Positions 1,302 to 64,000 of a stretch of 64,000 nt of DNA are shown piece after piece. Below the pieces are notes generated by a model. The model was not told the origin of the DNA, did not search any database, and saw only the letters and a list, made by a program, of their open reading frames with translations. How positions within the stretch are numbered: the first letter of the stretch is position 1; each line of letters opens with the position of its first letter. Origin of the DNA: Escherichia coli. GTDB taxonomy: Bacteria > Pseudomonadota > Gammaproteobacteria > Enterobacterales > Enterobacteriaceae. Made by a program: the position numbers and the translations under genes. Location of the stretch: the NCBI RefSeq assembly GCF_044324875.1, contig NZ_CP172185.1; one strand, written 5' to 3'.

Positions 1302-1331
1302 TAAAGATTTATTCGCCCGCAAGCAGTGATG

Positions 1332-30454: not shown

Positions 30455-30493
30455 CAGTGTATTGGTAGCTAAAAAGCCAGGGGCGGTAGCGTG
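30455..30493 (+). promoter_or_regulatory. JUMPstart element with ops site (RfaH-dependent antitermination) in the colanic acid operon leader
   Basis: cagtgtattggtagctaaaaagccaggggcggtagcgtg contains the ops core GGCGGTAGCGTG (30482..30493), about 180 bp upstream of wza. Confidence 0.8.
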
Positions 30494-38290: not shown

Positions 38291-38300
38291 GAATAAGAAC

Positions 38301-39047: not shown

Positions 39048-39062
39048 ATATAAGGGAAAACG

Positions 39063-39611: not shown

Positions 39612-39637
39612 ATTCAAAAAATACAGAGGAATAAGAC

Positions 39638-40759: not shown

Positions 40760-40761
40760 GC

Positions 40762-41727: not shown

Positions 41728-41729
41728 TG

Positions 41730-42209
41730 ATGTTTTTACGTCAGGAAGACTTTGCCACGGTAGTGCGCTCCACACCGCTTGTCTCTCTCGACTTTATTGT
41801 TGAGAACAGTCGCGGCGAGTTTCTGCTTGGCAAAAGAACCAACCGCCCGGCGCAGGGTTACTGGTTTGTGCCGGGAGGGCGCGTGCAGAAAGACGAAACG
41901 CTGGAAGCCGCATTTGAGCGGCTGACGATGGCGGAACTGGGGCTACGTCTGCCGATAACAGCAGGCCAGTTTTACGGTGTCTGGCAGCACTTTTATGACG
42001 ATAACTTCTCCGGCTCGGATTTTACCACTCACTATGTGGTGCTCGGTTTTCGCATCAGAGTCGCGGAAGATGAGCTGTTACTGCCGGATGAGCAGCATGA
42101 CGATTACCGCTGGCTGACGCCGGACGCGTTGCTCGCCAGTGACAATGTTCACGCTAACAGCCGCGCCTATTTTCTCGCTGAGAAGCGTGCCGGAGTACCC
42201 GGATTATGA
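41730..42209 (+). CDS. gmm: GDP-mannose mannosyl hydrolase (Nudix)
   Basis: ATG at 41730 gives [24 protein letters not shown] (159 aa); Nudix fold. Confidence 0.9.
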
Positions 42210-43429: not shown

Positions 43430-43431
43430 TT

Positions 43432-44868
43432 ATGGCGCAGTCGAAACTCTATCCAGTTGTGATGGCAGGTGGCTCCGGTAGCCGCTTATGGCCGCTTTCC
43501 CGCGTACTTTACCCCAAGCAGTTTTTATGCCTGAAAGGCGATCTCACCATGCTGCAAACCACCATCTGCCGCCTGAACGGCGTGGAGTGCGAAAGCCCGG
43601 TGGTGATTTGCAATGAGCAGCACCGCTTTATTGTCGCGGAACAGCTGCGTCAACTGAACAAACTTACCGAGAACATTATTCTCGAACCGGCAGGGCGAAA
43701 CACGGCACCTGCCATTGCGCTGGCGGCGCTGGCGGCAACACGTCATAGCCCGGAGAGCGACCCGTTAATGCTGGTATTGGCGGCGGATCATGTGATTGCC
43801 GATGAAGACGCGTTCCGTGCCGCCGTGCGTAATGCCATGCCATATGCCGAAGCGGGCAAGCTGGTGACCTTCGGCATTGTGCCGGATCTACCAGAAACCG
43901 GTTATGGCTATATTCGTCGCGGTGAAGTATCTGCGGGTGAGCAGGATACGGTGGCCTTTGAAGTGGCGCAGTTTGTCGAAAAACCGAATCTGGAAACCGC
44001 TCAGGCCTATGTGGCAAGCGGCGAATATTACTGGAACAGCGGTATGTTCCTGTTCCGCGCCGGACGCTATCTCGAAGAACTGAAAAAATATCGCCCGGAT
44101 ATTCTCGACGCCTGTGAAAAAGCGATGAGCGCCATCGATCCGGATCTCGATTTTATTCGTGTGGATGAAGAAGCGTTTCTCGCCTGCCCGGAAGAGTCGG
44201 TGGATTACGCAGTCATGGAACGTACGGCAGATGCTGTTGTGGTGCCGATGGATGCGGGCTGGAGCGATGTCGGTTCCTGGTCCTCTTTATGGGAGATCAG
44301 CGCCCACACCGCCGAGGGCAACGTTTGCCACGGCGATGTGATTAATCACAAAACTGAAAACAGCTATGTGTATGCCGAATCTGGCCTGGTCACCACCGTC
44401 GGGGTGAAAGATTTGGTGGTAGTGCAGACCAAAGATGCGGTGCTGATTGCTGACCGTAACGCGGTGCAGGATGTGAAAAAAGTGGTCGAGCAGATCAAAG
44501 CCGATGGTCGCCATGAGCATCGGGTGCATCGCGAAGTGTATCGTCCGTGGGGCAAATATGACTCTATCGACGCGGGCGACCGCTACCAGGTGAAACGCAT
44601 CACCGTGAAACCGGGCGAAGGCTTGTCGGTACAGATGCACCATCACCGCGCGGAACACTGGGTAGTGGTCGCGGGAACGGCAAAAGTCACCATTGATGGT
44701 GATATCAAACTGCTTGGTGAAAACGAGTCCATTTATATTCCGCTGGGGGCGACGCATTGCCTGGAAAACCCGGGGAAAATTCCGCTCGATTTAATTGAAG
44801 TGCGCTCCGGCTCTTATCTCGAGGAGGATGATGTGGTGCGCTTCGCGGATCGCTACGGGCGGGTGTAA
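43432..44868 (+). CDS. cpsB: mannose-1-phosphate guanylyltransferase (colanic acid copy)
   Basis: 478-aa ORF with [13 protein letters not shown] nucleotidyltransferase motif and C-terminal cupin ([17 protein letters not shown]). Confidence 0.95.
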
Positions 44869-44995
<127 letters not shown>

Positions 44996-45060
44996 TAACG
45001 ACAAAAACAAAATTGGCCGTTTCGGTCAGGGCCAACTATTGCCTGAAAAAGGGTAACGAC

Positions 45061-46431
45061 ATGAAAAAATTAACCTGCTTTAAAGCCTATGATATTCGCG
45101 GGAAATTAGGCGAAGAACTGAATGAAGATATTGCCTGGCGTATTGGGCGTGCCTATGGCGAATTTCTCAAACCGAAAACCATTGTGTTAGGCGGTGATGT
45201 CCGCCTCACCAGCGAAATCTTAAAACTGGCGCTGGCAAAAGGTTTACAGGATGCGGGTGTCGATGTGCTGGATATTGGCATGTCCGGCACCGAAGAGATC
45301 TATTACGCCACGTTCCATCTCGGCGTGGATGGCGGCATCGAAGTCACTGCCAGCCATAATCCGATGGATTACAACGGCATGAAGCTGGTACGCGAAGGGG
45401 CTCGCCCGATCAGCGGCGATACCGGACTGCGCGACGTCCAGCGTCTGGCAGAAGCCAATGACTTCCCTCCTGTCGATGAAACCAAACGCGGTCGCTATCA
45501 GCAAATCAATCTGCGTGATGCTTACGTTGATCACCTGTTCGGTTATATCAACGTCAAAAACCTCACGCCGCTCAAGCTGGTGATTAACTCCGGGAACGGC
45601 GCAGCGGGTCCGGTAGTTGACGCCATTGAAGCCCGCTTTAAAGCCCTCGGCGCACCTGTGGAATTGATCAAAGTGCACAACACGCCGGACGGCAATTTCC
45701 CCAACGGTATTCCTAACCCGCTGCTGCCGGAATGCCGCGACGACACCCGCAATGAGGTCATCAAACACGGCGCGGATATGGGCATTGCCTTTGATGGCGA
45801 TTTTGACCGCTGCTTCCTGTTTGACGAAAAAGGGCAGTTTATCGAGGGCTACTACATTGTCGGCCTGCTGGCAGAAGCGTTCCTCGAAAAAAATCCTGGC
45901 GCGAAGATCATCCACGATCCACGTCTCTCCTGGAACACCGTTGATGTGGTGACTGCTGCTGGCGGCACGCCGGTAATGTCGAAAACCGGACACGCCTTTA
46001 TTAAAGAACGTATGCGCAAGGAAGACGCCATCTATGGTGGCGAAATGAGCGCTCACCATTACTTCCGCGATTTCGCTTACTGCGACAGCGGCATGATCCC
46101 GTGGCTGCTGGTCGCCGAACTGGTGTGCCTGAAAGGAAAAACGCTGGGCGAACTGGTGCGCGACCGGATGGCAGCGTTTCCGGCAAGCGGTGAGATCAAC
46201 AGCAAACTGGCGCACCCCGTTGAGGCGATTAACCGCGTCGAACAGCATTTTAGCCGCGAGGCGCTGGCGGTGGATCGCACCGATGGCATCAGCATGACCT
46301 TTGCCGACTGGCGCTTTAATCTGCGCTCCTCCAACACCGAACCGGTGGTGCGGTTGAATGTGGAATCGCGCGGTGATGTGCCGCTGATGGAAGCGCGAAC
46401 GCGAACTCTGCTGGCGTTGCTGAACGAGTAA
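45061..46431 (+). CDS. cpsG: phosphomannomutase (colanic acid copy)
   Basis: ATG at 45061 gives [29 protein letters not shown] (456 aa) with phosphohexomutase active-site Ser motif (TASHNP). The upstream extension was rejected. Confidence 0.93.
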
Positions 46432-46485
46432 TGTCGGATCTTCCCTTACCCCACTGCGGGTAAGGGGCTAATAACAGGAACAACG

Positions 46486-47880
46486 ATGACAAATCTAAAA
46501 AAGCGCGAGCGAGCGAAAACCAATGCATCGTTAATCTCTATGGTGCAACGCTTTTCAGATATCACCATCATGTTTGCCGGACTATGGCTGGTTTGCGAAG
46601 TGAGCGGCCTGTCATTCCTCTACATGCACCTGTTGGTGGCGCTGATTACGCTGGTGGTGTTCCAGATGCTGGGTGGCATCACCGATTTTTATCGCTCATG
46701 GCGAGGTGTTCGGGCAGCGACAGAATTTGCCCTGCTGCTACAAAACTGGACCTTAAGCGTGATTTTCAGCGCCGGACTGGTGGCGTTCAACAATGATTTC
46801 GACACGCAACTGAAAATCTGGCTGGCGTGGTATGGGCTGACCAGCATCGGACTGGTGGTTTGCCGTTCATGTATTCGCATTGGGGCGGGCTGGCTGCGTA
46901 ATCATGGCTATAACAAGCGTATGGTCGCCGTAGCGGGGGATTTAGCCGCCGGACAAATGCTGATGGAGAGCTTCCGTAATCAGCCGTGGTTAGGGTTTGA
47001 AGTGGTGGGCGTATACCACGACCCAAAACCGGGCGGCGTTTCTAACGACTGGGCGGGCAATCTGCAACAGCTGGTAGAGGATGCAAAAGCGGGCAAGATT
47101 CATAACGTCTATATCGCGATGCAGATGTGCGACGGCGCGCGCGTGAAAAAACTGGTCCATCAACTGGCGGACACCACCTGTTCGGTGCTGCTGATCCCCG
47201 ATGTCTTTACCTTCAACATTCTCCATTCCCGTATCGAAGAGATGAACGGCGTACCGGTGGTGCCGCTTTACGACACACCGCTTTCCGGGGTTAACCGCCT
47301 GCTCAAACGTGCGGAAGACATTGTGCTGGCGACGCTTATCCTGCTGCTGATCTCCCCGGTGCTGTGTTGCATTGCGCTGGCGGTGAAACTCAGTTCACCT
47401 GGGCCGGTTATTTTCCGCCAGACTCGCTACGGCATGGACGGCAAACCGATCAAAGTGTGGAAGTTCCGTTCCATGAAAGTGATGGAGAACGACAAAGTGG
47501 TGACTCAGGCGACGCAGAACGATCCGCGCGTCACCAAAGTGGGGAATTTTCTACGCCGCACCTCGCTGGATGAATTGCCGCAGTTTATTAATGTGCTGAC
47601 CGGGGGGATGTCGATTGTCGGTCCGCGTCCGCATGCGGTGGCGCATAACGAACAGTATCGCCAGCTCATTGAAGGCTACATGCTGCGCCATAAGGTGAAA
47701 CCGGGCATTACCGGCTGGGCGCAGATTAACGGCTGGCGCGGCGAAACCGACACGCTGGAGAAAATGGAAAAACGCGTCGAGTTCGACCTTGAGTACATCC
47801 GCGAATGGAGCGTCTGGTTCGATATCAAAATCGTTTTCCTGACGGTGTTCAAGGGCTTCGTTAACAAAGCGGCATATTGA
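46486..47880 (+). CDS. wcaJ: undecaprenyl-phosphate glucose-1-phosphate transferase WcaJ
   Basis: 464-aa ORF with N-terminal TM segments and C-terminal bacterial sugar transferase domain (SIVGPRPH). Confidence 0.93.
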   Translation: MTNLKKRERAKTNASLISMVQRFSDITIMFAGLWLVCEVSGLSFLYMHLLVALITLVVFQMLGGITDFYRSWRGVRAATEFALLLQNWTLSVIFSAGLVAFNNDFDTQLKIWLAWYGLTSIGLVVCRSCIRIGAGWLRNHGYNKRMVAVAGDLAAGQMLMESFRNQPWLGFEVVGVYHDPKPGGVSNDWAGNLQQLVEDAKAGKIHNVYIAMQMCDGARVKKLVHQLADTTCSVLLIPDVFTFNILHSRIEEMNGVPVVPLYDTPLSGVNRLLKRAEDIVLATLILLLISPVLCCIALAVKLSSPGPVIFRQTRYGMDGKPIKVWKFRSMKVMENDKVVTQATQNDPRVTKVGNFLRRTSLDELPQFINVLTGGMSIVGPRPHAVAHNEQYRQLIEGYMLRHKVKPGITGWAQINGWRGETDTLEKMEKRVEFDLEYIREWSVWFDIKIVFLTVFKGFVNKAAY

Positions 47881-47881
47881 T

Positions 47882-49360
47882 ATGAGCTTACGTGAAAAAA
47901 CCATCAGCGGCGCGAAGTGGTCGGCGATTGCCACGGTGATCATCATCGGCCTCGGGTTGGTGCAGATGACCGTGCTGGCGCGGATTATCGACAACCACCA
48001 GTTCGGCCTGCTGACTGTGTCGCTGGTGATCATCGCGCTGGCAGATACGCTTTCTGACTTCGGTATCGCTAACTCCATTATTCAGCGAAAAGAAATCAGC
48101 CACCTTGAACTCACCACGCTGTACTGGCTGAACGTTGGGCTGGGGCTTGTGGTGTGCGTGGCGGTGTTTTTGTTGAGTGATCTCATTGGTGACATGCTGA
48201 ATAACCCGGACCTGGCACCCTTGATTAAAACATTGTCGCTGGCGTTTGTGGTGATCCCCCACGGGCAACAGTTCCGCGCGTTGATGCAGAAGGAGCTGGA
48301 GTTCAACAAAATCGGCATGATCGAAACCAGCGCGGTGCTGGCGGGCTTCACTTTTACGGTGGTTAGCGCCCATTTCTGGCCGCTGGCGATGACCGCGATC
48401 CTCGGTTATCTGGTCAATAGTGCGGTAAGAACGCTGCTGTTTGGCTACTTTGGCCGCAAAATTTATCGCCCCGGTCTGCATTTCTCGCTGGCGTCGGTGG
48501 CACCGAACTTACGCTTTGGTGCCTGGCTGACGGCGGACAGCATCATCAACTATCTCAACACCAACCTTTCAACGCTGGTGCTGGCGCGTATTCTCGGCGC
48601 GAGTGTGGCAGGGGGGTACAACCTGGCGTACAACGTGGCCGTTGTGCCGCCGATGAAACTGAACCCCATCATCACCCGCGTGTTGTTTCCGGCGTTTGCC
48701 AAAATTCAGGACGACACCGAAAAGCTGCGCGTCAACTTCTACAAGCTGCTGTCGGTGGTGGGGATTATCAACTTTCCGGCGCTGCTCGGGCTGATGGTGG
48801 TGTCAAATAACTTTGTACCGCTGGTCTTTGGTGAGAAGTGGAACAGCATTATTCCGGTGCTGCAATTGCTGTGTGTGGTGGGGCTGCTGCGCTCAGTGGG
48901 GAACCCGATTGGTTCGCTGCTGATGGCGAAAGCGCGGGTCGATATCAGCTTTAAATTCAACGTATTCAAAACCTTTCTGTTTATTCCGGCGATTGTTATT
49001 GGTGGGCAGATGGCGGGCGCAATCGGCGTCACGCTTGGCTTCCTGCTGGTGCAGATTATCAACACCATTCTGAGCTATTTCGTGATGATTAAACCGGTGC
49101 TCGGTTCCAGTTATCGCCAGTACATCCTGAGTTTGTGGCTGCCGTTTTATCTCTCGCTGCCGACGCTGGTGGTTAGTTCTGCGCTGGGCATTGTGCTGAA
49201 AGGGCAACTGGCGCTGGGGATGCTGTTGGCGGTGCAAATAGCCGCGGGCGTGCTGGCGTTTGTGGTGATGATTGTGCTGTCGCGCCATTCGCTGGTGGTG
49301 GAAGTGAAGCGTCAGTTTTGTCGCAGCGAAAAAATGAAAATGCTTTTACGGGCGGGGTGA
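47882..49360 (+). CDS. wzxC: colanic acid repeat-unit flippase WzxC
   Basis: 492-aa polytopic MOP-family membrane protein; position in the cluster. Confidence 0.93.
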   Translation: MSLREKTISGAKWSAIATVIIIGLGLVQMTVLARIIDNHQFGLLTVSLVIIALADTLSDFGIANSIIQRKEISHLELTTLYWLNVGLGLVVCVAVFLLSDLIGDMLNNPDLAPLIKTLSLAFVVIPHGQQFRALMQKELEFNKIGMIETSAVLAGFTFTVVSAHFWPLAMTAILGYLVNSAVRTLLFGYFGRKIYRPGLHFSLASVAPNLRFGAWLTADSIINYLNTNLSTLVLARILGASVAGGYNLAYNVAVVPPMKLNPIITRVLFPAFAKIQDDTEKLRVNFYKLLSVVGIINFPALLGLMVVSNNFVPLVFGEKWNSIIPVLQLLCVVGLLRSVGNPIGSLLMAKARVDISFKFNVFKTFLFIPAIVIGGQMAGAIGVTLGFLLVQIINTILSYFVMIKPVLGSSYRQYILSLWLPFYLSLPTLVVSSALGIVLKGQLALGMLLAVQIAAGVLAFVVMIVLSRHSLVVEVKRQFCRSEKMKMLLRAG

Positions 49361-49387
49361 ATGGTTGTTTTCGGTTCCGACAACGGT

Positions 49388-49672
49388 TGCCGGATGCGGC
49401 GTGAACGCCTTATCCGTCCTACGGCTCTGTGCTCGGGTCTTGTAGGCCTGATAAGACGCGCCAGCGTCGCATCAGGCACTAAATGCCGGATGCGGCGTAA
49501 AACGCCTTATCCATCCTACGGTTCTGTGCTCGGGACCTGTAGGCCTGATAAGACGCGTCAGCGTCGCATCAGGCACTGAATGCTGGATGCGGCGTGAACG
49601 CCTTATCCGGCCTACGGTTCTGTGCTCGGGTCTTGTAGGCCTGATAAGACGCGCCAGCGTCGCATCAGGCAA
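49388..49672. repeat. BIME cluster: three tandem ~95-bp units of paired REP elements between wzxC and wcaK
   Basis: Three near-identical copies of gccggatgcggcgtgaacgccttatccg.cctacgg.tctgtgctcggg.cttgtaggcctgataagacgcg.cagcgtcgcatcaggca. Confidence 0.85.
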
Positions 49673-49731
49673 AAAACGGCAACGAACACAACAAACACAG
49701 CCTCACCTGGCATCAAATTTATGAGGAAAAA

Positions 49732-51012
49732 ATGAAATTACTTATTCTGGGCAACCACACTTGCGGCAATCGTGGCGACAGCGCCATCTTGCGCGGCTTA
49801 CTTGATGCCATCAACATCCTCAATCCACATGCCGAAGTGGACGTGATGAGCCGCTATCCTGTCAGTTCTTCCTGGCTGCTCAACCGCCCGGTAATGGGCG
49901 ATCCGCTGTTCCTGCAAATGAAACAACACAACAGCGCGGCGGGCGTTGTCGGGCGCGTTAAAAAAGTCCTCCGTCGCCGCTACCAGCATCAGGTATTGCT
50001 CTCACGCGTCACCGACACTGGCAAGCTGCGTAATATCGCCATCGCCCAGGGATTCACTGACTTCGTGCGCCTGCTGTCAGGTTACGACGCCATTATTCAG
50101 GTCGGCGGATCGTTTTTTGTCGATCTCTACGGCGTGCCGCAGTTTGAACATGCGCTTTGCACATTTATGGCGAAAAAGCCGCTGTTTATGATTGGTCACA
50201 GCGTCGGCCCCTTCCAGGATGAGCAATTTAACCAACTGGCGAACTACGTTTTCGGTCACTGTGACGCGCTGATCCTGCGCGAGTCGGTTAGCCTCGATCT
50301 AATGAAACGCAGCAATATCACCACTGCAAAAGTGGAACATGGCGTCGATACCGCGTGGCTGGTCGATCACCACACAGAAGATTTCACCGCCAGCTATGCC
50401 GTCCAACACTGGCTGGACGTTGCCGCACAACAGAAAACGGTAGCAATTACCTTGCGCGAACTGGTACCGTTCGACAAACGTCTCGGCACCACTCAACAAG
50501 CGTATGAAAAAGCCTTTGCCGGGGTGGTCAATCGCATTCTCGACGAAGGATATCAGGTGATTGCGCTCTCCACCTGTACGGGTATCGACAGCTATAACAA
50601 AGACGACCGCATGGTGGCGCTCAATCTGCGCCAGCATATCAGCGATCCTGCCCGTTACCACGTAGTGATGGATGAACTCAACGATCTGGAAATGGGCAAA
50701 ATTCTCGGTGCCTGTGAACTCACCGTCGGTACGCGCCTGCACTCCGCCATTATCTCAATGAACTTTGCCACTCCGGCGATTGCCATCAACTATGAACATA
50801 AATCCGCCGGGATTATGCAACAGCTGGGACTGCCAGAGATGGCGATTGATATCCGTCATTTACTGGACGGCAGCCTGCAAGCGATGGTTGCGGATACCTT
50901 AGGCCAACTTCCGGCGCTGAACGCACGACTTAACGAAGCTGTCAGTCGTGAGCGTCAGACAGGAATGCAGATGGTGCAATCTGTGCTTGAGCGCATCGGG
51001 GAGGTGAAATGA
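49732..51012 (+). CDS. wcaK: colanic acid pyruvyl transferase WcaK
   Basis: 426-aa ORF beginning MKLLILGNHTCGNRGDSAIL; position in the cluster. Confidence 0.92.
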   Translation: MKLLILGNHTCGNRGDSAILRGLLDAINILNPHAEVDVMSRYPVSSSWLLNRPVMGDPLFLQMKQHNSAAGVVGRVKKVLRRRYQHQVLLSRVTDTGKLRNIAIAQGFTDFVRLLSGYDAIIQVGGSFFVDLYGVPQFEHALCTFMAKKPLFMIGHSVGPFQDEQFNQLANYVFGHCDALILRESVSLDLMKRSNITTAKVEHGVDTAWLVDHHTEDFTASYAVQHWLDVAAQQKTVAITLRELVPFDKRLGTTQQAYEKAFAGVVNRILDEGYQVIALSTCTGIDSYNKDDRMVALNLRQHISDPARYHVVMDELNDLEMGKILGACELTVGTRLHSAIISMNFATPAIAINYEHKSAGIMQQLGLPEMAIDIRHLLDGSLQAMVADTLGQLPALNARLNEAVSRERQTGMQMVQSVLERIGEVK

Positions 51013-52229
51013 AGGTCGGCTTCTTTTTACTGAAATTTCCGCTGTCGTCGGAAACCTTCGTCCTCAATCAAATTACCGCGTTTATTGATATGGGCTTTGA
51101 AGTGGAGATTGTCGCGCTGCAAAAAGGTGACACACAAAACACCCACGCGGCATGGACGAAATACAACCTTGCCGCAAGAACCCGCTGGTTACAGGACGAA
51201 CCTACGGGCAAAGTGGCGAAGCTGCGCCACCGTGCCAGCCAGACCTTACGCGGCATTTATCGTAAAAATACCTGGCAGGCGCTCAACCTCAAACGCTATG
51301 GTGCCGAGTCGCGGAACCTGATTTTGTCTGCCATTTGCGGCCAGGTCGCAACACCGTTTCATGCCGATGTCTTTATCGCTCATTTTGGTCCGGCAGGGGT
51401 AACCGCAGCAAAACTACGCGAACTGGGTGTCATTCGCGGCAAAATTGCCACTATCTTCCACGGCATTGATATCTCCAGTCGGGAAGTGCTCAACCACTAC
51501 ACTCCCGAATATCAGCAACTGTTCCGCCGTGGCGACCTGATGTTACCGATAAGCGATCTGTGGGCCGGAAGGCTGCAAAAAATGGGCTGTCCGAGGGAAA
51601 AAATCGCCGTATCGCGTATGGGCGTGGACATGACGCGCTTTAGCCCGCGCCCGGTGAAAGCGCCCGCAACGCCGCTGGAAATCATTTCCGTCGCACGCTT
51701 AACCGAGAAAAAAGGCCTGCATGTGGCGATTGAAGCCTGCCGTCAGTTGAAAGAGCAGGGCGTGGCATTTCGCTATCGCATCCTCGGCATTGGCCCGTGG
51801 GAACGACGCCTGCGCACCCTCATCGAACAATATCAACTGGAAGATGTGGTGGAGATGCCGGGCTTTAAACCGAGCCATGAAGTGAAAGCGATGCTCGACG
51901 ACGCGGATATCTTCCTGTTGCCATCGGTAACGGGCGCGGATGGCGATATGGAAGGCATTCCGGTCGCGCTGATGGAAGCGATGGCGGTCGGCATTCCGGT
52001 GGTTTCTACTCTGCATAGCGGAATACCGGAACTGGTCGAGGCCGATAAATCCGGCTGGCTGGTGCCTGAGAACGATGCTCGCGCACTGGCGCAACGACTG
52101 GCGGCGTTTAGCCAACTGGACACCGACGAACTGGCTCCGGTCGTCAAACGAGCGCGCGAAAAAGTCGAACACGATTTTAACCAGCAGGTGATTAATCGAG
52201 AACTCGCCAGCTTGCTGCAAGCTTTATAG
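51009..52229 (+). CDS. wcaL: colanic acid GT4 glycosyltransferase WcaL
   Basis: 406-aa ORF; overlaps the wcaK stop; GT4 EX7E-type region. Confidence 0.92.
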
Positions 52230-52239
52230 AGGAGAACGT

Positions 52240-53634
52240 ATGCCATTTAAAAAACTCTCCCGACGCACCTTCCTGACGGCAAGCTCCGCGCTTGCCTTCC
52301 TCCATACCCCTTTCGCTCGCGCACTTCCCGACCAACAGAGCGTTAACATTAACGACTACAACCCTCACGACTGGATCGCCTCATTTAAACAAGCCTTCAG
52401 CGAAGGACAAACAGTCGTCGTGCCTGCCGGATTCGTTTGTGACAATATCAACACCGGCATCTTCATCCCTCCCGGCAAAACGTTACACATCCTTGGAAGC
52501 CTGCGCGGCAACGGCAGAGGGCGATTTGTCTTACAGGACGGCAGCCAGGTGACAGGGGAGGAGGGCGGCAGTATGCATAACATCACCCTGGATGTGCGTG
52601 GTTCTGACTGCACCATCAAAGGGCTGGCGATGAGCGGTTTCGGCCCGGTAACGCAGATTTATATCGGCGGCAAAAACAAACGGGTTATGCGTAACCTGAC
52701 CATCGATAACCTGACCATTAGCCACGCTAATTACGCCATCTTACGTCAGGGATTTCATAACCAGATTATCGGTGCCAACATCACCAATTGTAAGTTCAGC
52801 GACTTACAGGGGGACGCCATTGAATGGAACGTGGCGATTAACGACAGTGATATTTTGATCTCCGACCACATCATCGAGCGCATCAACTGTACCAACGGCA
52901 AAATCAACTGGGGAATCGGCATAGGCCTTGCGGGGAGTACTTATGATAATAACTACCCGGAAGACCAGGCAGTGAAAAACTTTGTCGTGGCGAATATCAC
53001 GGGATCGGATTGTCGACAACTGATCCATGTTGAAAATGGTAAACATTTTGTTATTCGTAATATCAAAGCCCGCAATATCACGCCGGATTTCAGTAAGAAA
53101 GCAGGTATTGATAACGCCACGGTCGCTATTTACGGTTGTGACAATTTCGTGATTGATAATATTGAAATGATTAATAGCGCCGGGATGTTAATCGGTTATG
53201 GGGTAATTAAAGGCAAATATCTCTCGATACCGCAAAATTTCCGAGTGAATAATATTCAGCTGGATAACACCCACCTTGCTTACAAATTGCGCGGTATCCA
53301 AATCTCTGCCGGGAATGCTGTCTCCTTTGTGGCACTGACTAACATTGAGATGAAGCGTGCCTCGTTGGAGTTACACAACAAACCGCAACATCTTTTTATA
53401 CGAAATATCAAAGTGATGCAGGAATCCTCTGTTGGACCCGCATTGAGCATGAACTTCGACATGCGCAAAGACGTTCGCGGCGTCTTTATGGCGAAAAAAG
53501 AAACACTGCTGTCTCTTGCAAATGTTCATGCGGTGAATGAAAGAGGGCAAAGCTCCGTCGATATCGACAGGGTTAATCACCATATTGTTAATGTGGAAAA
53601 GATTAACTTTAGATTGCCAGAACGGAGAGAGTAG
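52240..53634 (+). CDS. wcaM: colanic acid biosynthesis protein WcaM (secreted, beta-helix-like)
   Basis: 464-aa ORF with Tat/Sec-like N-terminus [21 protein letters not shown]; position in the cluster. Confidence 0.9.
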
Positions 53635-53808
53635 ATTTGCGACCATTCCTGGAAAAATGGAGCCATACTTAGGAACAATGCTACTGCAATCCACAACGAA
53701 GCGGCGTAACATCACAAGTAATTCAGTAATCAATTCAGGGTAATTGATGCTGGCGAAAAAAATCGAACAAGCTATAATTCAGCAACCATTTTACAGGTGG
53801 ATGAAATA

Positions 53809-54702
53809 ATGACGAATTTAAAAGCAGTTATTCCTGTAGCGGGTCTTGGGATGCATATGTTGCCTGCCACTAAGGCGATTCCCAAAGAGATGCTACCGAT
53901 CGTCGACAAGCCAATGATTCAGTACATTGTTGACGAGATTGTGGCTGCAGGGATCAAAGAAATCCTCCTGGTAACTCACGCGTCCAAGAACGCGGTCGAA
54001 AACCACTTCGACACCTCTTATGAATTAGAATCTCTCCTTGAACAGCGCGTGAAGCGTCAACTACTGGCGGAAGTGCAGTCCATCTGTCCGCCGGGCGTGA
54101 CCATTATGAACGTGCGTCAGGGCGAACCTTTAGGTTTGGGCCACTCCATTTTATGTGCACGACCTGCCATTGGTGACAACCCATTTGTCGTGGTACTGCC
54201 AGACGTTGTTATCGATGACGCCAGCGCCGATCCGCTACGCTATAACCTTGCTGCCATGATTGCGCGCTTCAACGAAACGGGCCGCAGCCAGGTGCTGGCA
54301 AAACGTATGCCGGGTGACCTCTCTGAATACTCCGTCATTCAGACCAAAGAACCACTGGATCGTGAAGGTAAAGTCAGCCGCATCGTCGAATTTATCGAAA
54401 AACCGGATCAGCCGCAGACGCTGGACTCAGACATCATGGCCGTTGGTCGCTATGTGCTTTCTGCCGATATTTGGCCGGAACTTGAACGCACGCAACCTGG
54501 TGCATGGGGGCGTATTCAGCTGACTGATGCTATTGCCGAACTGGCGAAAAAACAGTCCGTTGATGCCATGCTGATGACCGGCGACAGCTACGACTGCGGT
54601 AAAAAAATGGGCTATATGCAGGCGTTTGTGAAGTATGGACTGCGCAACCTGAAGGAAGGGCCAAAGTTCCGTAAGAGCATTGAGAAGTTGCTCGGGGAAT
54701 AG
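53809..54702 (+). CDS. galF: UTP-glucose-1-phosphate uridylyltransferase regulatory subunit GalF
   Basis: ATG at 53809 gives [39 protein letters not shown] (297 aa). The upstream GTG extension was rejected. Confidence 0.95.
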
Positions 54703-54962
54703 ATCCCAAGCCAATGTAACAATAATTTAGATAAATAGCGGCAGCTAACATCCCGGCGTCTATGCTTTAAACAAAGGAATGTTACTGTCGTTTTTCTTTT
54801 TAAAACAAAGAATAACAACGAGTTAACCTACTAAGTTTAATCTATTTTTTGTTGGATTTATCCTTGTTTCTGACAGCATTTGGTAAGACAATTGGCGTTT
54901 GAATTTAAGATAGCTTTGCGATAGCTAGCGGGGCGGGGTACATCTTTGGCATTTTGCTAGTG

Positions 54963-54996
54963 CACTGGTAGCTGTTAAGCCAGGGGCGGTAGCGTG
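54963..54996 (+). promoter_or_regulatory. JUMPstart element with ops site upstream of the O-antigen gene cluster
   Basis: cactggtagctgttaagccaggggcggtagcgtg contains the ops core GGCGGTAGCGTG (54985..54996), in the galF to O-antigen intergenic region. Confidence 0.85.
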
Positions 54997-55095
54997 GTAA
55001 GATTGTGTTTATATGATGCGTTCTCAAAATAAGAAATAATAATCCTGACTATTTTTATACTATTGATAATATCTGAAATAAACTTAAGAGCAAAC

Positions 55096-56100
55096 ATGAA
55101 AGTAATTGTAAATAATTTTTTTGATGGTATTTTGAAAAGAGGAATACCGATCTATACTTCTGAACTTGTGCAAAAGTTAAGAGACAATAATGTTCAGGTT
55201 ATTTATGTTGCATGTCCAAAAGCATTCCATAAGCTGCCTTCATGGTTTCTGAATGTTCTTTTTATAATAGTAGAGCAGCTTTTAATACCAATTATGGGTA
55301 TATTTTATAGAACTAAGTATAATATATATCCCTATAATAGTAGTTCCATCATTGACTTGTTATTAGGTAAGGCAATTGTTATAATTCATGACTTCATTAG
55401 TCTTAAGAAAAATAAACGAAATCTTGCTGCCATTTATGTGAAAGTCTGTATTTATTTTTCATCTTTTTTAGCAAAGAAAGTAATATTTATTTCTCAAAGC
55501 ACTCAGCGAGTATCTAAGAGAATATCGCTATTTAAGTGTATAGAATCTATCCTGCTCCCAAATCCATTTTTCTCATTTGAGAAAATTGCTAATGTTACCG
55601 AAATAAAAGATCTTGGATATTTACTTCTAGTTTCAGGTTTAGGGGATAATAAGGATCTAGGCACAGCTCTGGACTATTATTTTTCAATCCCAAGGGAAGA
55701 AAGAATACCATTAAAAATATTAGGTTGTGGGAATGGTATTAGCAAGGTTAACGACTTAATTGATGGGCGGGATACAGATAAAGAAATTGAAATTATTGGT
55801 TTTGTTTCTTTAGAGGAAGTCGTCAAACTATATTGTAATTCTAAAATTGTTTGGGCTCATTCGCTTGCCGAGGGGTATGGAAGGACTTTAGCTGAAGCAA
55901 AACTCACATGCAAAAATGTTATATGCACACGGATCTCTGCTTTCCGCGAACAAAAGGATTCGAATATTTTCTTTTATACTTACTATTCTGAGTATTATGA
56001 AGTCTATTCATACTTGGTAGATAATTCACCCAGTGTCGAAAGGAAAGCTCTGCATGAACATATTTTATTTGAAAATGAATTGAGAAAGATTTATGAGTAA
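55096..56100 (+). CDS. O-antigen glycosyltransferase, probable GT4 family
   Basis: ATG at 55096 (MKVIVNNFFDG..., preceded by TAAGAG) chosen over the ORF-track start at 55063. EX7E-like region AHSLAEGYGRTLAEA. Very AT-rich codon usage. Confidence 0.75.
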   Translation: MKVIVNNFFDGILKRGIPIYTSELVQKLRDNNVQVIYVACPKAFHKLPSWFLNVLFIIVEQLLIPIMGIFYRTKYNIYPYNSSSIIDLLLGKAIVIIHDFISLKKNKRNLAAIYVKVCIYFSSFLAKKVIFISQSTQRVSKRISLFKCIESILLPNPFFSFEKIANVTEIKDLGYLLLVSGLGDNKDLGTALDYYFSIPREERIPLKILGCGNGISKVNDLIDGRDTDKEIEIIGFVSLEEVVKLYCNSKIVWAHSLAEGYGRTLAEAKLTCKNVICTRISAFREQKDSNIFFYTYYSEYYEVYSYLVDNSPSVERKALHEHILFENELRKIYE

Positions 56101-57295
56101 TATTGATATAAATAAGAAACAGATATTAGTTTTGACTCCACGGTTCCCGTTTCCTGTCATTGGTGGGGATCGATTACGTATCTATAAGATCTGTAAAGAA
56201 CTGTCTAAGCATTATGATCTTACGTTGCTGAGTCTGTGTGATAAACGCGAAGAGCTCAACTATGAATATGATCGTGAAGTTTTTAGTAGTGTTCACAGAG
56301 TATATCTTTCAAAGAAAAAATCTATTTTAAATGTCATATTCTCTTTGTTTTCAAATACTCCCCTACAGATTGGGTATTATAAATCTAAAGAATTTGAAGA
56401 TAAACTTAAGCAGTTATTACCTGAACATTCTGCAACTCTTTCACATTTGATAAGGGTTGGTGATTATGTGAAAGAGAATAAAGATATAAATTTTTTAGAG
56501 ATGACCGATGCCATTTCACTTAATTATAAACGAGTAAAGGAAAAAGCATCTTTATTGAGTTTAAAAACATTTGTATATTCTTTTGAACAAAAAAGACTCG
56601 AACGATATGAGCGAACTATAAATAACAAGTTCAGCTTGACTACTTTGGTATCACAGGTTGACTCCGATTATTTATATCCAGACCGTCCGAATAATGTATT
56701 AGTCTGTGGAAATGGTGTTGATGCCGTTAGCTTACCTTTTTCAGAACGAAAAATAGCTAAAGATAAAAAGATAACCCTTGTATTTATAGGTAATTTATAT
56801 TCTTTGCAAAATATGGATGGTGTGAGATGGTTCACCAAGGAAGTTTTACCATTTCTTAACAAGCATGGTAATTTTGAATTTAAGGTCATCGGACGTATTA
56901 CAGATAAAGATAAGAGTTGGTTAGAAAGCCAGCCTGGCGTTGTTGTCACAGGTGAAGTTGATAGCATAACTTATGCAGCAGCTGATGGGCATATTGGTGT
57001 ATGTCCTATTAGATTAGGGGCAGGTATCCAAAATAAGGTACTTGAATATATGGCGTTGGGATTACCTTGTATCTCTTCTACTGTAGGCTTTGAAGGCTTG
57101 GGAGCAGAGGAGGGTAAGGAGATTTATGTTGCCAATACAAAAGAAGAATATTTACGTGTATTAAATTATTTTATAACAAATCTGGATAAATATACCGAAA
57201 CAGCATTAGTTGCGAAAAAGTTTATCGGTGAGAATTTTTCATGGGAAGCTAAATTGAGCCCATATATCCAGAAAATTAAGGAGTCTGTTAAATAA
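56093..57295 (+). CDS. O-antigen glycosyltransferase, GT4 family
   Basis: 400-aa ORF; start overlaps the previous gene. GT4 C-terminal region ([33 protein letters not shown]). Confidence 0.8.
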
Positions 57296-57296
57296 A

Positions 57297-58712
57297 ATGA
57301 TTATCCCAATTATTATGGCCGGTGGTTCTGGTACTCGCTTATGGCCTCTTTCGCGTTCGTTATACCCGAAACAATTTTTATCATTGATTAATGAAAATAG
57401 TTTGCTCCAGGAAACGTTGAAGAGACTTGATGGATTAAATTGTTTGCCTCCTGTCATTGTTAGCAATAATGAGCATAGATTTATTGTTGCTGAACAATTG
57501 CGACAGTTCGGTGTGGATGACTTCCAGATTATTCTAGAACCTGTAGGTAGAAATACTGCGCCCGCCGTTGCGCTGGCTGCTCTAAAGTCTCTAGAACTCC
57601 ATGGCGATCATCATATGCTGGTTCTTGCTGCTGACCATGCTATTCAGGATATTGAAGCCTTCCATGCAGCTGTTTTAGCTGCAGAACAAGAGTCCGTTGA
57701 CAATAAGTTAGTGACTTTTGGCATCGTCCCGACCAAACCTGAAACTGGGTATGGCTATATTAAAAAGGGCGAACAAGTTAAAAACTCTGTATTTAAAGTA
57801 AATTCTTTCGTCGAAAAACCTGATTTAGAAACGGCTAAAAATTATCTCGAACAAAAATGCTATTTGTGGAATAGTGGTATGTTCATGTTCAAGGCGAGCG
57901 TATATTTAGATGAATTGAAAAAATTTCGCCCTGATATTTTAGCAGCGTGTAAAGAGTCGCTTTCCAGTGCTAGTACTGATCTAGATTTTATCAGATTAAA
58001 TTCTGATGTCTTTGCAGAATGTCCCGATGAGTCAATTGATTATGCGGTAATGGAAAAAACTCAGGATTGTGTAGTTATTCCACTTGATGCTGACTGGAGT
58101 GACATCGGTTCATGGACATCACTTTGGGAAATATCAGAGAAAGATGAACATGAAAACGTATCGCATGGCGATGTAATTAACTATAACAGCAGGAACAACT
58201 ACATTTACTCTGAAGGTTCACTGATCAGCACTGTAGGAGTTAATAACCTTATTATAGTTCAAACTAAAGATGCGCTCCTGGTAGCACAGCAAGACAACGT
58301 ACAAGACATAAAGAAGATTGTCGAAATTCTTAAAAAGCAAAAACGTAGCGAACATATATCCCATCGCGAAGTCTATCGTCCTTGGGGACGTTATGATTCT
58401 GTAGAACGTGGCGACCGTTATCAGGTAAAGCGTATTACCGTTAAGCCTGGTGAATGTCTCTCAACACAAATGCATCATCATCGAGCTGAGCATTGGGTGG
58501 TTGTCGCTGGTACTGCAAAGGTGACTTGCGGCGAACGCACTTTTTTCGTCACTGAAAATGAGTCAACTTTCATACCAATTGGCACAGTTCATACCTTGGA
58601 AAATCCAGGAAAGATACCATTAGAAGTAATTGAGATTCAGTCGGGTGTATATCTAGGTGATGATGATATTGTGCGCCTAAGTGATAAATATGGTCGTGTT
58701 GAGGATAAATAA
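57297..58712 (+). CDS. manC: mannose-1-phosphate guanylyltransferase (O-antigen copy)
   Basis: 471-aa ORF; N-terminus [28 protein letters not shown] and C-terminal cupin nearly identical in motif to cpsB, but in AT-rich codon usage. Confidence 0.9.
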
Positions 58713-58716
58713 TTAT

Positions 58717-60138
58717 ATGAATATTACCAATGATGTAATTAAAAATAGCGGAATTGCATTTGGTACAAGTGGTGCTCGTGGATTAGTGAAAGATTTTACA
58801 CCCAACGTGTGTGCTGCATTCACTTATGCTTTTATCGATGTAATGATGAAGGATTTTTCTTTTAAAGAGGTTGCGCTCGCAATAGATAATCGCCCAAGCA
58901 GCTATGCTATGGCACAAGCTTGCGCAGCAGCATTGTTGGAATGTAGTATTAAACCTATTTACTACGGTGTAATTCCAACTCCAGCTTTGGCAAATCAAGC
59001 GATTGCCGATGGGATTCCTGCAATAATGGTTACTGGAAGTCATATTCCATTTGATAGAAATGGTTTGAAATTCTATCGTCCAGACGGGGAAATTTCAAAA
59101 GAAAATGAGAACAGCATTATACATGCTGAAAAAGAGTATCCTGATGTAACTGTATTGCCAGAATTACAATGTTCAAAGCGTGCCGCTGATACTTATATCG
59201 AGAGAAACACTTCAATTTTTTCAAATATATTTAAAGGTAAACGTATCGGGATTTATGAACATTCAAGTGCGGGACGGGATCTTTATTCAGAAATATTCAG
59301 TAAGCTTGGTGCTGAAGTTGTAAGTATTGGTAGAAGTGATGAGTTTGTGCCTATTGATACTGAAGCAGTATCAAAAGAAGATGAAGAAAAAGCTTTACAC
59401 TGGTCATCTGAGTATGACCTCGATATGATTTTTTCTACCGATGGTGATGGCGATCGTCCTTTGGTTGCTGACGAAAATGGCGTTTGGTTACGGGGTGATA
59501 TATTAGGACTATTTTGCTCAAAGGCAATGAATATTGAAGCGGTAGCTGTACCTGTAAGTTGTAATACGGTTATTCAGACTTGCGGGTGGTTTAATCATGT
59601 AACGCTGACTAAAATTGGTTCACCATACGTCATTTCAGCGTTTGATTCTCTGAATAATAGTTTTGATAGGGTTGCAGGGTTTGAGGCTAACGGTGGGTAT
59701 CTTTTAGGTAGCGATGTAAATTATAACAGCGGTATGATTAAAGCGCTTCCAACAAGAGATGCTGTTTTGCCTGCTTTAATGGTACTGGCACTGGCTATAA
59801 AAAATAATGTGACTATTTCAAAACTCTTGGCGGAGTTGCCACCACGATTTACCTACTCAAATAGAGTTCAAAATTTTGCAACAAGCAAAAGTAAAAGCAT
59901 TATCGCGTCAGCTCAAGAAAATCCTCAAGAATTTATCGAAAGAATAGGCTTTGTCGATCTTCATGTACAATCGGTGGATACAATTGACGGGTTAAGATTG
60001 ACACTAAGTGATGGTTCAATAATCCATTTGCGACCGTCAGGCAACGCACCTGAATTGCGATGCTATGCAGAAGCAGATAACATAATAAAAGCTGAAAAAT
60101 TAGTGTTAGAAGTTTTGCATAAAGTTACTCTTTTGTAA
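58717..60138 (+). CDS. manB: phosphomannomutase-type phosphohexomutase (O-antigen copy)
   Basis: ATG at 58717 gives [29 protein letters not shown]...; active-site region [17 protein letters not shown]. The ORF-track start at 58681 is a GTG inside manC. Gene symbol assigned by function and cluster context, not by match to a specific known locus. Confidence 0.8.
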
Positions 60139-60321
60139 AAAAATATAAACTTTTTTCTACTCTTGAGCGGTTTGTCATTTAACCGCTCAGTAATAGATTG
60201 TTTATAAATTGTTTATATTTAGCATTGGTGTTTTTATTTGCGTTCATCCCGAATAAGAGATTGTAAAATTAACTGTTTCTTATTTTTCAAATGAGTTACT
60301 TCACTAGTAAAGCTAATTACT

Positions 60322-61653
60322 ATGCATAAGCAATATTATTCATTATTGTGCAATAAAATACAGTTTAAACATCTGGCTATATATTTTTCTGTATTTCTTT
60401 CACTATCCTCATGTTTCTTGTGGGGAGGGGCGGATACATTTGTATCGCAAGTGTATATTGATATTTTAGCCACTATATCTACAGCGCTATTAGTTGTTTT
60501 GATGTTCTATTATTATATTAATAGAGTTCGCTATTTATCACTAACCTTACTTTTTGCATTCGTTTTTTCTTTGATTATTGGTTTGCCATCGATTTATCTT
60601 TACTATTTTAAAAACGCAAATCATGGGTTTGAAATAATTTGTATCTGGGGGATGTTGATCAATTCCATCCTTTACTTGCAAACAACAGAGACTGTCATAA
60701 AAGAAGAAAAAAGATATTTAACTAGTTTATTTTATATTTTGTTTTCTATTGTTGCACTGTGTCAATTATACAAAATATTAATTTATCTTATGTTTATATT
60801 GAATTCAGGAGAAGGGCATTTAGCAATTTATACTGAAAGCGAAGAATTGCTATCCCAAGTTCCATTTTTTATTCGTGCTATTAGTGGTTTTGCAGTTGTA
60901 ATGTCATTGTCCACTTTTTATTTTAAAACACCGACCTACATTAAAGTTATTGCATTTGTTTTACTTGCATCTGATTTAGCTATTGGAATACGTAATAAGT
61001 TTTTCTTTTCAGTGATTTGTATTTTTATACTATATATGTACTCTAATGAGTATAGAGTAAGAAATTTATTTAAGCAACTCTCAAAACCAATATTTCTCAT
61101 CGCCGGTTTTTTATGCTTCTCGATGGTATCGTATTTCCGTGAAGGGTACCAAATCGATTTTATGATTTATATTGGCATTGTTTTAGATTCGCTATCCTCT
61201 ACTCTTGGGGGGATGCAGAATTTGTTTGATATGCAATCATCAGGATGGGATCAACTTCATCCCGCTGTGGTATTCACACAAGTATTACCGCTAAGCGGTC
61301 TTGGTTTTCTTGATGATCAACAAATCGCAAAAGATTTTTCAATAATTGTTTTAGGTGATGTATCCTCTGGTATTGCGTTGTCATCTTCAGGATTGTTAGA
61401 GTCATCGTTGCTGAGTCTAAACTTGGGAGTGATTATTTATTTACTGTATTTATCAGGGGTGATGCTTTTTATTAAATGGGGACTAAATAATCAACGGATA
61501 ATAATAAACTTTGTTGCCATCTCCATGATATCTGGATTTTTTTATGCTGTTCGTGGTGAACTGATTTTGCCATTGGCTTTTCTTCTAAAATCATTGCCGA
61601 TTGTTCTTATATCTCCATTACTTGTTAAAAATAAAATTTATCATGGTCAGTAA
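60322..61653 (+). CDS. wzy: probable O-antigen polymerase (Wzy-type polytopic membrane protein)
   Basis: 443-aa strongly hydrophobic, very AT-rich ORF with about 10-12 predicted TM segments and no MOP-family N-terminal motif. Assigned by exclusion and cluster context. Confidence 0.6.
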   Translation: MHKQYYSLLCNKIQFKHLAIYFSVFLSLSSCFLWGGADTFVSQVYIDILATISTALLVVLMFYYYINRVRYLSLTLLFAFVFSLIIGLPSIYLYYFKNANHGFEIICIWGMLINSILYLQTTETVIKEEKRYLTSLFYILFSIVALCQLYKILIYLMFILNSGEGHLAIYTESEELLSQVPFFIRAISGFAVVMSLSTFYFKTPTYIKVIAFVLLASDLAIGIRNKFFFSVICIFILYMYSNEYRVRNLFKQLSKPIFLIAGFLCFSMVSYFREGYQIDFMIYIGIVLDSLSSTLGGMQNLFDMQSSGWDQLHPAVVFTQVLPLSGLGFLDDQQIAKDFSIIVLGDVSSGIALSSSGLLESSLLSLNLGVIIYLLYLSGVMLFIKWGLNNQRIIINFVAISMISGFFYAVRGELILPLAFLLKSLPIVLISPLLVKNKIYHGQ

Positions 61654-61694
61654 GTGGTTTATTTTTCGACCAGGATCTCACCAGTAGGCATGAC

Positions 61695-62930
61695 ATGATC
61701 AAAGAAATTTTCTCCGATGGCATTTTTTCGCTATTTAATAAAATATGTTACTTCGGTTTTAAAACACTTGCAATAATTCTGATTACTCGTTCCTTAGGAG
61801 AAGATGTAGGCGGAGAGTTCATTTTTTTAGTTGGTTTTCTCGAAGTCCTTCGGGTGGTTACTGATTTTGGTGTGGATCTGTTTGTTATAAAAAAATATAA
61901 TGATTCTACAGATAAAATAAAACTATTAAATGTAACGTTTGCACAAAAAATTCTTTCTGGAGTAATTGTTTTACTACTGTTTTGTTTGTATTCTTTTGTT
62001 CAGGGTTATCAATATAATGTCTATATTCCTATTGTGTTAGCCTTACCTGTTGCTTTATTTTTTAATTTCTCAAATAGCTATTTTCAATCTCTCAATTCCA
62101 ATAAATCTCTCACGTTTCCGATCGCAATTGCATCTATTGCAACGTGTACGATCTTCGCTATTCAGTATTTTTTAAACGTTAAATTTAACGCATGGGATTA
62201 CCTGTGTGTTGAACTATTATTCGTATCGCTGGTTACACTAAAACTATTCGTTAGTGTCAAGTTTAGGTTTATTAGAACGTCAGCTTTTGATGTGCTAATG
62301 TCAATTCTTTCTTTATATAAATATACATTAAGTATAGGTCTTACAGCTGTTGTTGTAATTATTTATAGCCGTATAGATAATTTTTATCTCAAGACATTTG
62401 CCCCAGGGGATCTTGCAGCATATGGCCAGATATTTAGGATGGTTGATCCACTGGTTATGGTTTCTTCTGTATTTTCTACAGTTGCCTATGCAAGATTTTG
62501 CCGAATTAACTTACAAGAAAAAAATGCTTTTACTAAGGTGTTTCAGTTCCTGTTATGTATTGTGGCATATGGCGTGCTGAGTTCATTAGTTTATTTCTTT
62601 ATAATAAAATACCTGGGTCATTTTGTATTGATTTCTAATGTTAATAATGATTTCTTGATAATGATGTTCTTGATTGTTGCATGTGTGAAATGTATCAATG
62701 GTGGTACAACTGCAATAATTCAGTCACAGGGGTTTTATAAAGTGGGTTTGTATGTTTCGTATGTTTGCATTTTGACATCGATACCAACTATGTATTTCTT
62801 AATAATGAAGTACGGTGTTAAAGGTGCTGCTATGACGATTCTGCTTGTAGAGTGTATTAGTTTCATATTACTTCTCTGCAGCTTTTTTATGATAAAAAAG
62901 ATGCGTCCTAAAAAAACATTCGAAATGTAA
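61695..62930 (+). CDS. wzx: probable O-antigen flippase (Wzx, MOP family)
   Basis: 411-aa polytopic membrane ORF with N-terminal FNKICYFGFKTLAIILITRSLGEDVGGEF resembling the Wzx/polysaccharide-biosynthesis-protein N-terminal motif. Confidence 0.65.
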   Translation: MIKEIFSDGIFSLFNKICYFGFKTLAIILITRSLGEDVGGEFIFLVGFLEVLRVVTDFGVDLFVIKKYNDSTDKIKLLNVTFAQKILSGVIVLLLFCLYSFVQGYQYNVYIPIVLALPVALFFNFSNSYFQSLNSNKSLTFPIAIASIATCTIFAIQYFLNVKFNAWDYLCVELLFVSLVTLKLFVSVKFRFIRTSAFDVLMSILSLYKYTLSIGLTAVVVIIYSRIDNFYLKTFAPGDLAAYGQIFRMVDPLVMVSSVFSTVAYARFCRINLQEKNAFTKVFQFLLCIVAYGVLSSLVYFFIIKYLGHFVLISNVNNDFLIMMFLIVACVKCINGGTTAIIQSQGFYKVGLYVSYVCILTSIPTMYFLIMKYGVKGAAMTILLVECISFILLLCSFFMIKKMRPKKTFEM

Positions 62931-63082
62931 TCAATGAGTCCTCTTTGAATAGAATTAGTTTGTTCTATTTATGAACACTTAGCTTGAGTAAGTTCTAACA
63001 TAGATTACTAATTGTTTGATACTATCTGCTTTACAAGCATAACCGCGTATGTCGCGGTGACCACACCTGACAGGAGTATGTA

Positions 63083-64000
63083 ATGTCCAAGCAACAGATC
63101 GGCGTCGTCGGTATGGCAGTGATGGGGCGCAACCTGGCGCTCAACATCGAAAGCCGTGGTTATACCGTCTCCGTCTTCAACCGCTCCCGCGAAAAAACTG
63201 AAGAAGTTGTTGCCGAGAACCCGGGTAAGAAACTGGTTCCTTATTACACGGTGAAAGAGTTTGTCGAGTCTCTTGAAACCCCTCGTCGCATCCTGTTAAT
63301 GGTGAAAGCAGGTGCAGGCACGGATGCTGCTATTGATTCCCTCAAACCATATCTCGATAAAGGTGACATCATCATTGATGGTGGTAACACCTTCTTCCAG
63401 GACACTATTCGTCGTAATCGTGAGCTTTCAGCAGAGGGCTTTAACTTCATCGGTACCGGTGTTTCCGGCGGTGAAGAGGGGGCGTTGAAAGGACCTTCCA
63501 TCATGCCTGGTGGGCAGAAAGAAGCCTATGAACTGGTTGCACCAATTCTGACCAAAATCGCCGCAGTAGCTGAAGACGGTGAGCCATGCGTTACCTATAT
63601 TGGTGCCGATGGCGCAGGTCACTATGTGAAGATGGTTCACAACGGTATTGAATACGGCGATATGCAGCTGATTGCTGAAGCCTATTCTCTGCTAAAAGGT
63701 GGCCTGAACCTCACCAACGAAGAACTGGCGCAGACTTTTACCGAGTGGAATAACGGTGAACTGAGCAGCTACCTGATCGACATCACCAAAGATATCTTCA
63801 CCAAAAAAGATGAAGACGGTAACTACCTGGTTGATGTGATTCTGGATGAAGCAGCAAACAAAGGTACGGGCAAATGGACCAGCCAGAGTGCGCTGGATCT
63901 CGGCGAACCGCTGTCGCTGATAACCGAGTCTGTGTTTGCACGTTATATCTCTTCTCTGAAAGATCAGCGCGTTGCCGCGTCTAAAGTTCTCTCTGGCCCG
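63083..64000 (+). CDS. gnd: 6-phosphogluconate dehydrogenase (decarboxylating), 5' part (gene runs off the window end)
   Basis: CAGGAG SD then ATG at 63083 gives [35 protein letters not shown]..., the classical Gnd N-terminus with Rossmann motif. No stop before the window end. Confidence 0.95.

Follow-up and report, generated by a model that had tools for sequence, protein, structure and literature searches.

What is the short conserved element between galF and the first O-antigen gene of this Escherichia coli locus: a leader through which RfaH reaches the O-antigen genes, a junction at which O-antigen clusters are swapped, or an element that acts chiefly as RNA? JUMPstart (RF01707) is a 39-bp element found just upstream of many polysaccharide-associated gene starts, and the leaders of the RfaH regulon include those of rfb, rfa/waa, kps, hly, tra and wza. 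At the ops pause, the exposed non-template strand draws in RfaH, which excludes NusG, curbs both pausing and termination by Rho and links the ribosome to the polymerase. The DNA analysed here, called the window throughout, is 64,000 nt long (RefSeq assembly GCF_044324875.1, contig NZ_CP172185.1) and is the E. coli wca–galF–O-antigen–gnd region. We are confident that 54958..54996 is a canonical JUMPstart with its ops (operon polarity suppressor), lying in the untranslated leader of a Wzx/Wzy-type O-antigen cluster of the O17/O44/O73/O77/O106 group.

Gene names were taken from the RefSeq annotation of a 100%-identical locus (window coordinate = locus coordinate + 51702). The cluster and its flanks are laid out as follows:

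53809..54702, + strand: galF, the conserved left flank (RefSeq annotation; 92–95% identical to galF of other serogroups)
55096..56100, + strand: glycosyltransferase of the GT1 family, the first gene (WP_000864846.1; Pfam PF00534, 1.1e-10)
56093..57295, + strand: glycosyltransferase family 4 (Pfam PF13692, 5.3e-19; 8-nt overlap with the preceding gene)
57297..58712, + strand: manC, mannose-1-phosphate guanylyltransferase / mannose-6-phosphate isomerase (Pfam PF00483, PF01050)
58717..60138, + strand: manB, phosphomannomutase (Pfam PGM_PMM domains I–IV)
60322..61653, + strand: wzy, O-antigen polymerase of the O17/O44/O73/O77/O106 family (RefSeq annotation)
61695..62930, + strand: wzx, O-antigen flippase of the O17/O44/O73/O77/O106 family (Pfam PF01943)
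63083..64000, + strand, running off the window: 5' part of gnd, the conserved right flank (RefSeq annotation)

Pfam agrees with RefSeq for the cluster genes other than wzy, for which no Pfam match was found. The order GT-GT4-manC-manB-wzy-wzx between galF and gnd, with group-specific wzx and wzy, is that of the O17/O44/O73/O77/O106 cluster, and a megablast search of 5426 complete E. coli genomes finds the 8398 bp at 54703..63100 with 100% identity in O17_K12a and in many further strains. Relative to the seven carriers of the group compared, the window has a base of its own at 59892, in manB. The GC content falls from about 0.5 in galF to 0.27–0.43 in the cluster, dropping directly after the JUMPstart, and stands at about 0.49 in gnd. 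Clusters of this group are >99% identical and share a Man-Man-Man-GlcNAc backbone (Liu et al. 2020, PMC7685785; Gp9-type group), and the glucosylation of their side branches has been proposed to be encoded elsewhere (PMC7685785), and for that reason the locus does not tell the serogroups of the group apart.

The window holds two manC/manB pairs, namely cpsB/cpsG of colanic acid (43432..46431) and the lower-GC O-antigen pair (57297..60138), and these probably account for the 1788 genomes that gave partial matches to the O-antigen query. An algC RNA motif (RF02929, 78.2 bits) lies at 45007..45056 on the + strand, directly 5' of the colanic acid phosphomannomutase gene cpsG; unlike cpsG, the O-antigen manB has no such motif in front of it. 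Strain SCU-482 (NZ_CP053247.1) matches 54303..55500 over 1196 bases for 1198 at 99.8% identity, with no glycosyltransferase CDS annotated beneath the match, a possible sign of a frameshift in the first O-antigen gene of that strain.

The element ahead of the cluster has the following parts, and the window carries one further copy:

54958..54996, + strand: 39-bp JUMPstart, TAGTGCACTGGTAGCTGTTAAGCCAGGGGCGGTAGCGTG (Rfam RF01707)
54965..54983, + strand: JUMPstart hairpin, in which CTGGT (54965-54969) pairs with GCCAG (54979-54983) across a 9-nt loop (structure line of the Rfam alignment)
54985..54996, + strand (non-template): ops, the 12-nt GGCGGTAGCGTG, an exact match to GGCGGTAGNNTG
30455..30493, + strand: the other JUMPstart/ops of the window, in the wza leader of the colanic acid cluster (RF01707, 57.3 bits)

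The RF01707 model matches 54958..54996 over its full length (positions 1–38 of 38) with 59.2 bits and an E-value of 2.6e-11, the gathering score being 35 bits. The 39-mer JUMPstart consensus fits the same stretch with one mismatch and found nothing in 100 shuffles; the match is beyond chance expectation. The consensus starts with C and this copy with T, which is no substantive difference. The ops octamer GGCGGTAG occupies 54985..54992, inside the 12-nt pattern GGCGGTAGnnTG, the hairpin recurs in the centroid fold of the leader, and GGTAGC is duplicated within the element (54967-54972 and 54988-54993). The element shares its length, exact 12-nt ops, hairpin and duplicated GGTAGC with the JUMPstart/ops family, and it agrees with that family in strand and in its position between galF and the first O-antigen gene, such that all of the sequence-level defining features are present at 54958..54996. 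The ops lies on the strand of the six downstream genes and therefore on the non-template strand. It ends (54996) 99 nt before the ATG of the first glycosyltransferase (55096), and no open reading frame of at least 20 aa was found on the + strand across 54703-55062, so that none crosses the ops.

The initial annotation had placed a JUMPstart/ops at the head of the O-antigen cluster, in the galF to O-antigen intergenic region and about 100 bp before the first glycosyltransferase, and on all of these points it is borne out: by the RF01707 score and exact ops, by the end of galF at 54702, by the measured distance and by the GT1-family assignment of the first gene. The span that it gave, 54963..54996, ends exactly where the element does but misses the first 5 nt. 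It rightly counted this copy as the second of the window, the first being the one before wza. To call the two almost identical was somewhat generous, as 33 of the 39 bases are the same (85%); the 3' 20 nt (AAGCCAGGGGCGGTAGCGTG), including the ops, are identical, and the six substitutions fall in the 5' half and the loop.

When the element was compared with copies at eight other polysaccharide loci (K-12 O16, O157, O21, two other rfbB-first clusters, a plasmid-borne cluster, a group-1 capsule locus and the wza copy of the window), it was 85–97% identical to them, with flanks at random level. The JUMPstart of strain LD27-1 is 97% identical to the present copy. Just 5' of the JUMPstart, rfbB-first clusters carry a variable hairpin (GCGCGAG...CTCGT), whereas a different, G-rich sequence occupies that place here (54915-54942). 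The plasmid-borne copy, also 97% identical, belongs to a chromosomal-type O-antigen locus, wcaL-wcaM-galF-JUMPstart-rfbB-rfbD-rfbA-flippase, on the 52-kb E. coli plasmid p21AR0133D (NZ_JBSAOW010000005.1, locus 1..8038). The copy in E. coli CE0026a (NZ_CP119003.1, locus 3991..4085) precedes the group-1 capsule locus wzi-wza-wzb-wzc and adjoins IS1; a frameshifted 'hypothetical protein' pseudogene annotated by RefSeq spans it and is probably an annotation artefact.

Within the window, the wza copy lies 179 nt upstream of the start of the wza ORF (30672). The 12-nt ops pattern is matched exactly for a third time (GGCGGTAGCCTG) at 4365..4376 on the - strand, within a 467-aa ORF (4086..5489) and on its coding strand; to judge by mdt-like ORFs nearby, this ORF is presumably baeS. 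Octamers GGCGGTAG at 4369, 19059 and 29895 were rejected as extra ops sites, as all of them lie within ORFs, where RfaH does not load (PMC9765446). In strain CFT073, wza–wcaM is a cryptic RfaH target at which initiation is silenced by H-NS (PMC9765446).

Two further parts of the leader can be placed around the JUMPstart:

54864..54892, + strand: putative sigma-70 promoter, with -35 TTGTTT (54864-54869), a 17-nt spacer and -10 GACAAT (54887-54892)
54997..55095, + strand: serogroup-specific 3' part of the leader, AT-rich (GC 0.27–0.33)

Transcription would start in the spacer between galF and the JUMPstart, probably from the -35 at 54864 and the -10 at 54887; an O-antigen promoter at this position is plausible and would imply a leader some 195 nt long. 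The putative promoter falls in a serogroup-conserved block of the MAFFT alignment, CCTTGTTTC...TTGGTAAGACAATT(A/G)GCGTTTGAATTT, which can also be written CCTTGTTTC...TTGGTAAGACAATTGGCGTTTGAATTT. Marolda and Valvano are said to have mapped the O7 promoter in 1998, at a position that agrees with 54864..54892. A simple scan for sigma-70 promoters on the + strand from galF to the JUMPstart, with a threshold of at least 9 of 12 positions, returned no site, the one at 54864..54892 included. An extended leader RNA structure was considered and dropped, as the fold of the 200-nt leader is no stabler than that of shuffled sequences (z = +1.32). A mir-283 match at 54715-54810 was set aside as chance (18.5 bits against a cut-off of 50).

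The organisation downstream of the leader is that of a compact array. All six cluster genes are co-directional, and the two glycosyltransferase genes, manC and manB overlap or sit 1–4 nt apart, with wider gaps of 183 nt between manB and wzy and of 41 nt between wzy and wzx. Intrinsic terminator-like sites were found at chance level (6 against 5.0 expected), with none in an intergenic gap. From what is general for ops, RNA polymerase would be expected to pause at 54985..54996, where the exposed non-template GGCGGTAGCGTG would recruit RfaH. RfaH would then replace NusG, suppressing pausing and Rho-dependent termination, and would counteract H-NS/StpA roadblocks and keep the ribosome coupled to the polymerase. 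We propose that, because of this action of RfaH, the AT-rich (29–42% GC), long and foreign-looking GT-GT4-manC-manB-wzy-wzx array may be read as one unit; the rfaH gene itself is not in the window. A single RfaH-dependent unit at 55096..62930, as initially annotated, is likely, in that it fits both the architecture of the cluster and RfaH ChIP in other E. coli. In CFT073, the O-antigen (wzx) unit and wza each show an RfaH ChIP-seq signal that sets in at the one ops of the leader and is kept through the unit, every RfaH target is coated with H-NS/StpA, and intragenic ops-like sites are unbound by RfaH (PMC9765446). The AT-rich composition of the present cluster fits this picture of RfaH and H-NS in CFT073.

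The element had further been annotated as marking the junction at which the horizontally acquired segment begins on the left, with a comparison against other serogroups on either side as the check. In a megablast search with 54303..55500, among the matches listed, alignments to genomes that do not carry the cluster end at or before query position 694 (window 54996), many of them exactly there. The galF side was found in 5140 of the 5426 complete E. coli genomes, whereas a sensitive blastn search with 54997..55400 found 93 of them, all at ≥99% identity and all carrying the cluster. Anchored on the element, the 80 nt 3' of the JUMPstart are 17–33% identical across the eight loci, which is the random level, as against 85–97% for the JUMPstart itself. 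The JUMPstart is the last stretch common to all serogroups, and its 3' end is therefore the left edge of the serogroup-specific DNA, exactly at 54996/54997.

The edge of serogroup-specific DNA is not the same thing as the edge of the transferred block. When the window is set against seven further genomes with this cluster, differences are dense (about 4%) up to a lineage-specific point and fall to near zero through the cluster and into gnd. The last dense differences are as follows:

52142, at the 3' end of wcaL, 2.8 kb left of 54996: O17_K12a, CFSAN061770, A10, EC31 and ST3
52719, in wcaM, 2.2 kb left of 54996: 042 (O44)
54663, within galF and 39 nt short of its stop, no more than 0.33 kb left of 54996: GN25

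The near-identical block starts to the left of 54996, and what moves along with the cluster therefore usually includes galF and a portion of wcaM or wcaL. These alignments place the actual crossovers within wcaL, within wcaM, or in the interval from the final bases of galF to the JUMPstart, and exchange uses homology anywhere to the left of the JUMPstart, in galF, wcaM or wcaL. The junction on the right falls outside the window. Six of the carrier sequences compared extend far enough into gnd, where the window and these six are distinguished by positions 63544 and 63547 alone. The annotated junction thus stands as the left edge of serogroup-specific DNA, where homology to other serogroups stops, but not as the start of the transferred block, for which the breakpoints mostly lie 2.2–2.8 kb further left.

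The wca–galF flank (38200..54700) is a recombination mosaic which, relative to O17_K12a, is 100% identical in 44700-48700 and from 52200 on and about 96% identical in 38200-44200 and 49200-52200. Carriers of the O17/O44/O73/O77/O106 cluster have a different mosaic in their wca flank and, among the matches listed, no complete genome covers the 24.9-kb stretch 38200-63100 at >98.9% identity. Two naRNA4/REP-type elements (RF02564, 68–74 bits) lie at 49445..49516 and 49542..49612 on the - strand, in the wzxC–wcaK intergenic region, and the wzxC–wcaK stretch aligns poorly or variably between strains (41% coverage against MS 110-3).

It could be argued that the JUMPstart is mainly a recombination junction or hotspot at which O-antigen clusters swap, since all polysaccharide loci have it in common as an island of 85–97% identity, to the right of which homology ceases. 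For GN25 alone, the crossover could have involved the JUMPstart itself, which is taken in by the interval 54664..54996. In the other six of the seven carriers, however, the junction is placed further left, after 52142 or 52719; a 39-bp tract of identity is moreover a poor substrate compared with the approximately 900-bp galF and the wca genes, and a review places the exchange in the flanking genes (PMC7685785). We consider a main role in recombination highly unlikely. O-antigen switching takes galF and part of wca along, so that the JUMPstart is not to be read as the transfer junction.

A different objection is that the element might act chiefly as a leader RNA stem-loop controlling mRNA stability or translation, and not through non-template DNA and RfaH. 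The Rfam model treats the JUMPstart as a cis-regulatory RNA, its 5-bp hairpin does form here, and Marolda and Valvano reportedly proposed leader stem-loops for O7 in 1998. Against this, the leader as a whole is no stabler than its shuffles, and conservation is highest in the unpaired 3' ops and not in the stem. RfaH, moreover, reads the exposed non-template DNA strand, according to Artsimovitch and Landick (2002) as they are cited in PMC9765446. An action mainly at the level of RNA, which finds no support beyond the small hairpin, is in our judgement very unlikely, and we retain the reading of 54958..54996 as a DNA-level RfaH leader.

The single-unit reading is challenged most directly by one feature inside the cluster:

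60139..60321, + strand: manB–wzy spacer, 183 nt, with a perfect 10-bp hairpin (60163-60172 / 60181-60190) and an 8-nt loop

This spacer is the sole long gap in the cluster, and if it held another promoter, or a site of RNA processing or attenuation, the cluster would not be one transcription unit and wzy–wzx would in part escape control by the JUMPstart leader. The spacer RNA is strongly structured (-42.3 kcal/mol, z = -4.29, with none of 200 shuffles equally stable), and it holds a weak promoter-like match at 60172-60199 (9/12), because of which wzy–wzx could be partly independently expressed. The shift in GC content from 0.36–0.43 in manCB to 0.29–0.35 in wzy/wzx suggests that the cluster was assembled from modules. 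On the other hand, promoter-like matches occur at chance density in the scan (37 found, 35.8 expected), and the hairpin at 60163-60190, with no U tract behind it, does not qualify as a canonical terminator. RfaH in CFT073 also rides RNA polymerase over the whole of an O-antigen unit that has one ops (PMC9765446). A split cluster of this kind appears unlikely, and the likely reading remains a single RfaH-dependent unit. The spacer is confined to the 93 genomes that carry the cluster, and the idea that it travels with manB in other serogroups was rejected on that count. A more speculative and quite improbable suggestion is that the spacer acts as an internal checkpoint on the ratio of precursor and glycosyltransferase genes to wzy/wzx, working either as an attenuator that RfaH suppresses or as a site where the RNA is processed or stabilised. 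If true, the checkpoint would make expression of the polymerase and flippase more RfaH-dependent than that of the proximal genes.

Both the JUMPstart/ops leader and the O17/O44/O73/O77/O106 cluster were already known, and the element described here is real but ordinary, with nothing new about it. It confirms a standard RfaH-type leader for this O-antigen cluster and carries little weight beyond annotation. The JUMPstart is so firmly established as the conserved 5' boundary of O-antigen clusters that it serves as the standard primer site at that end for their amplification (PMC3715488; PMC2884935), and the edge at 54996/54997 is useful for setting boundaries in in-silico serotyping and for placing JUMPstart–gnd PCR primers. 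The breakpoints, for their part, illustrate once again that galF and part of wca move with the cluster in O-antigen switching.
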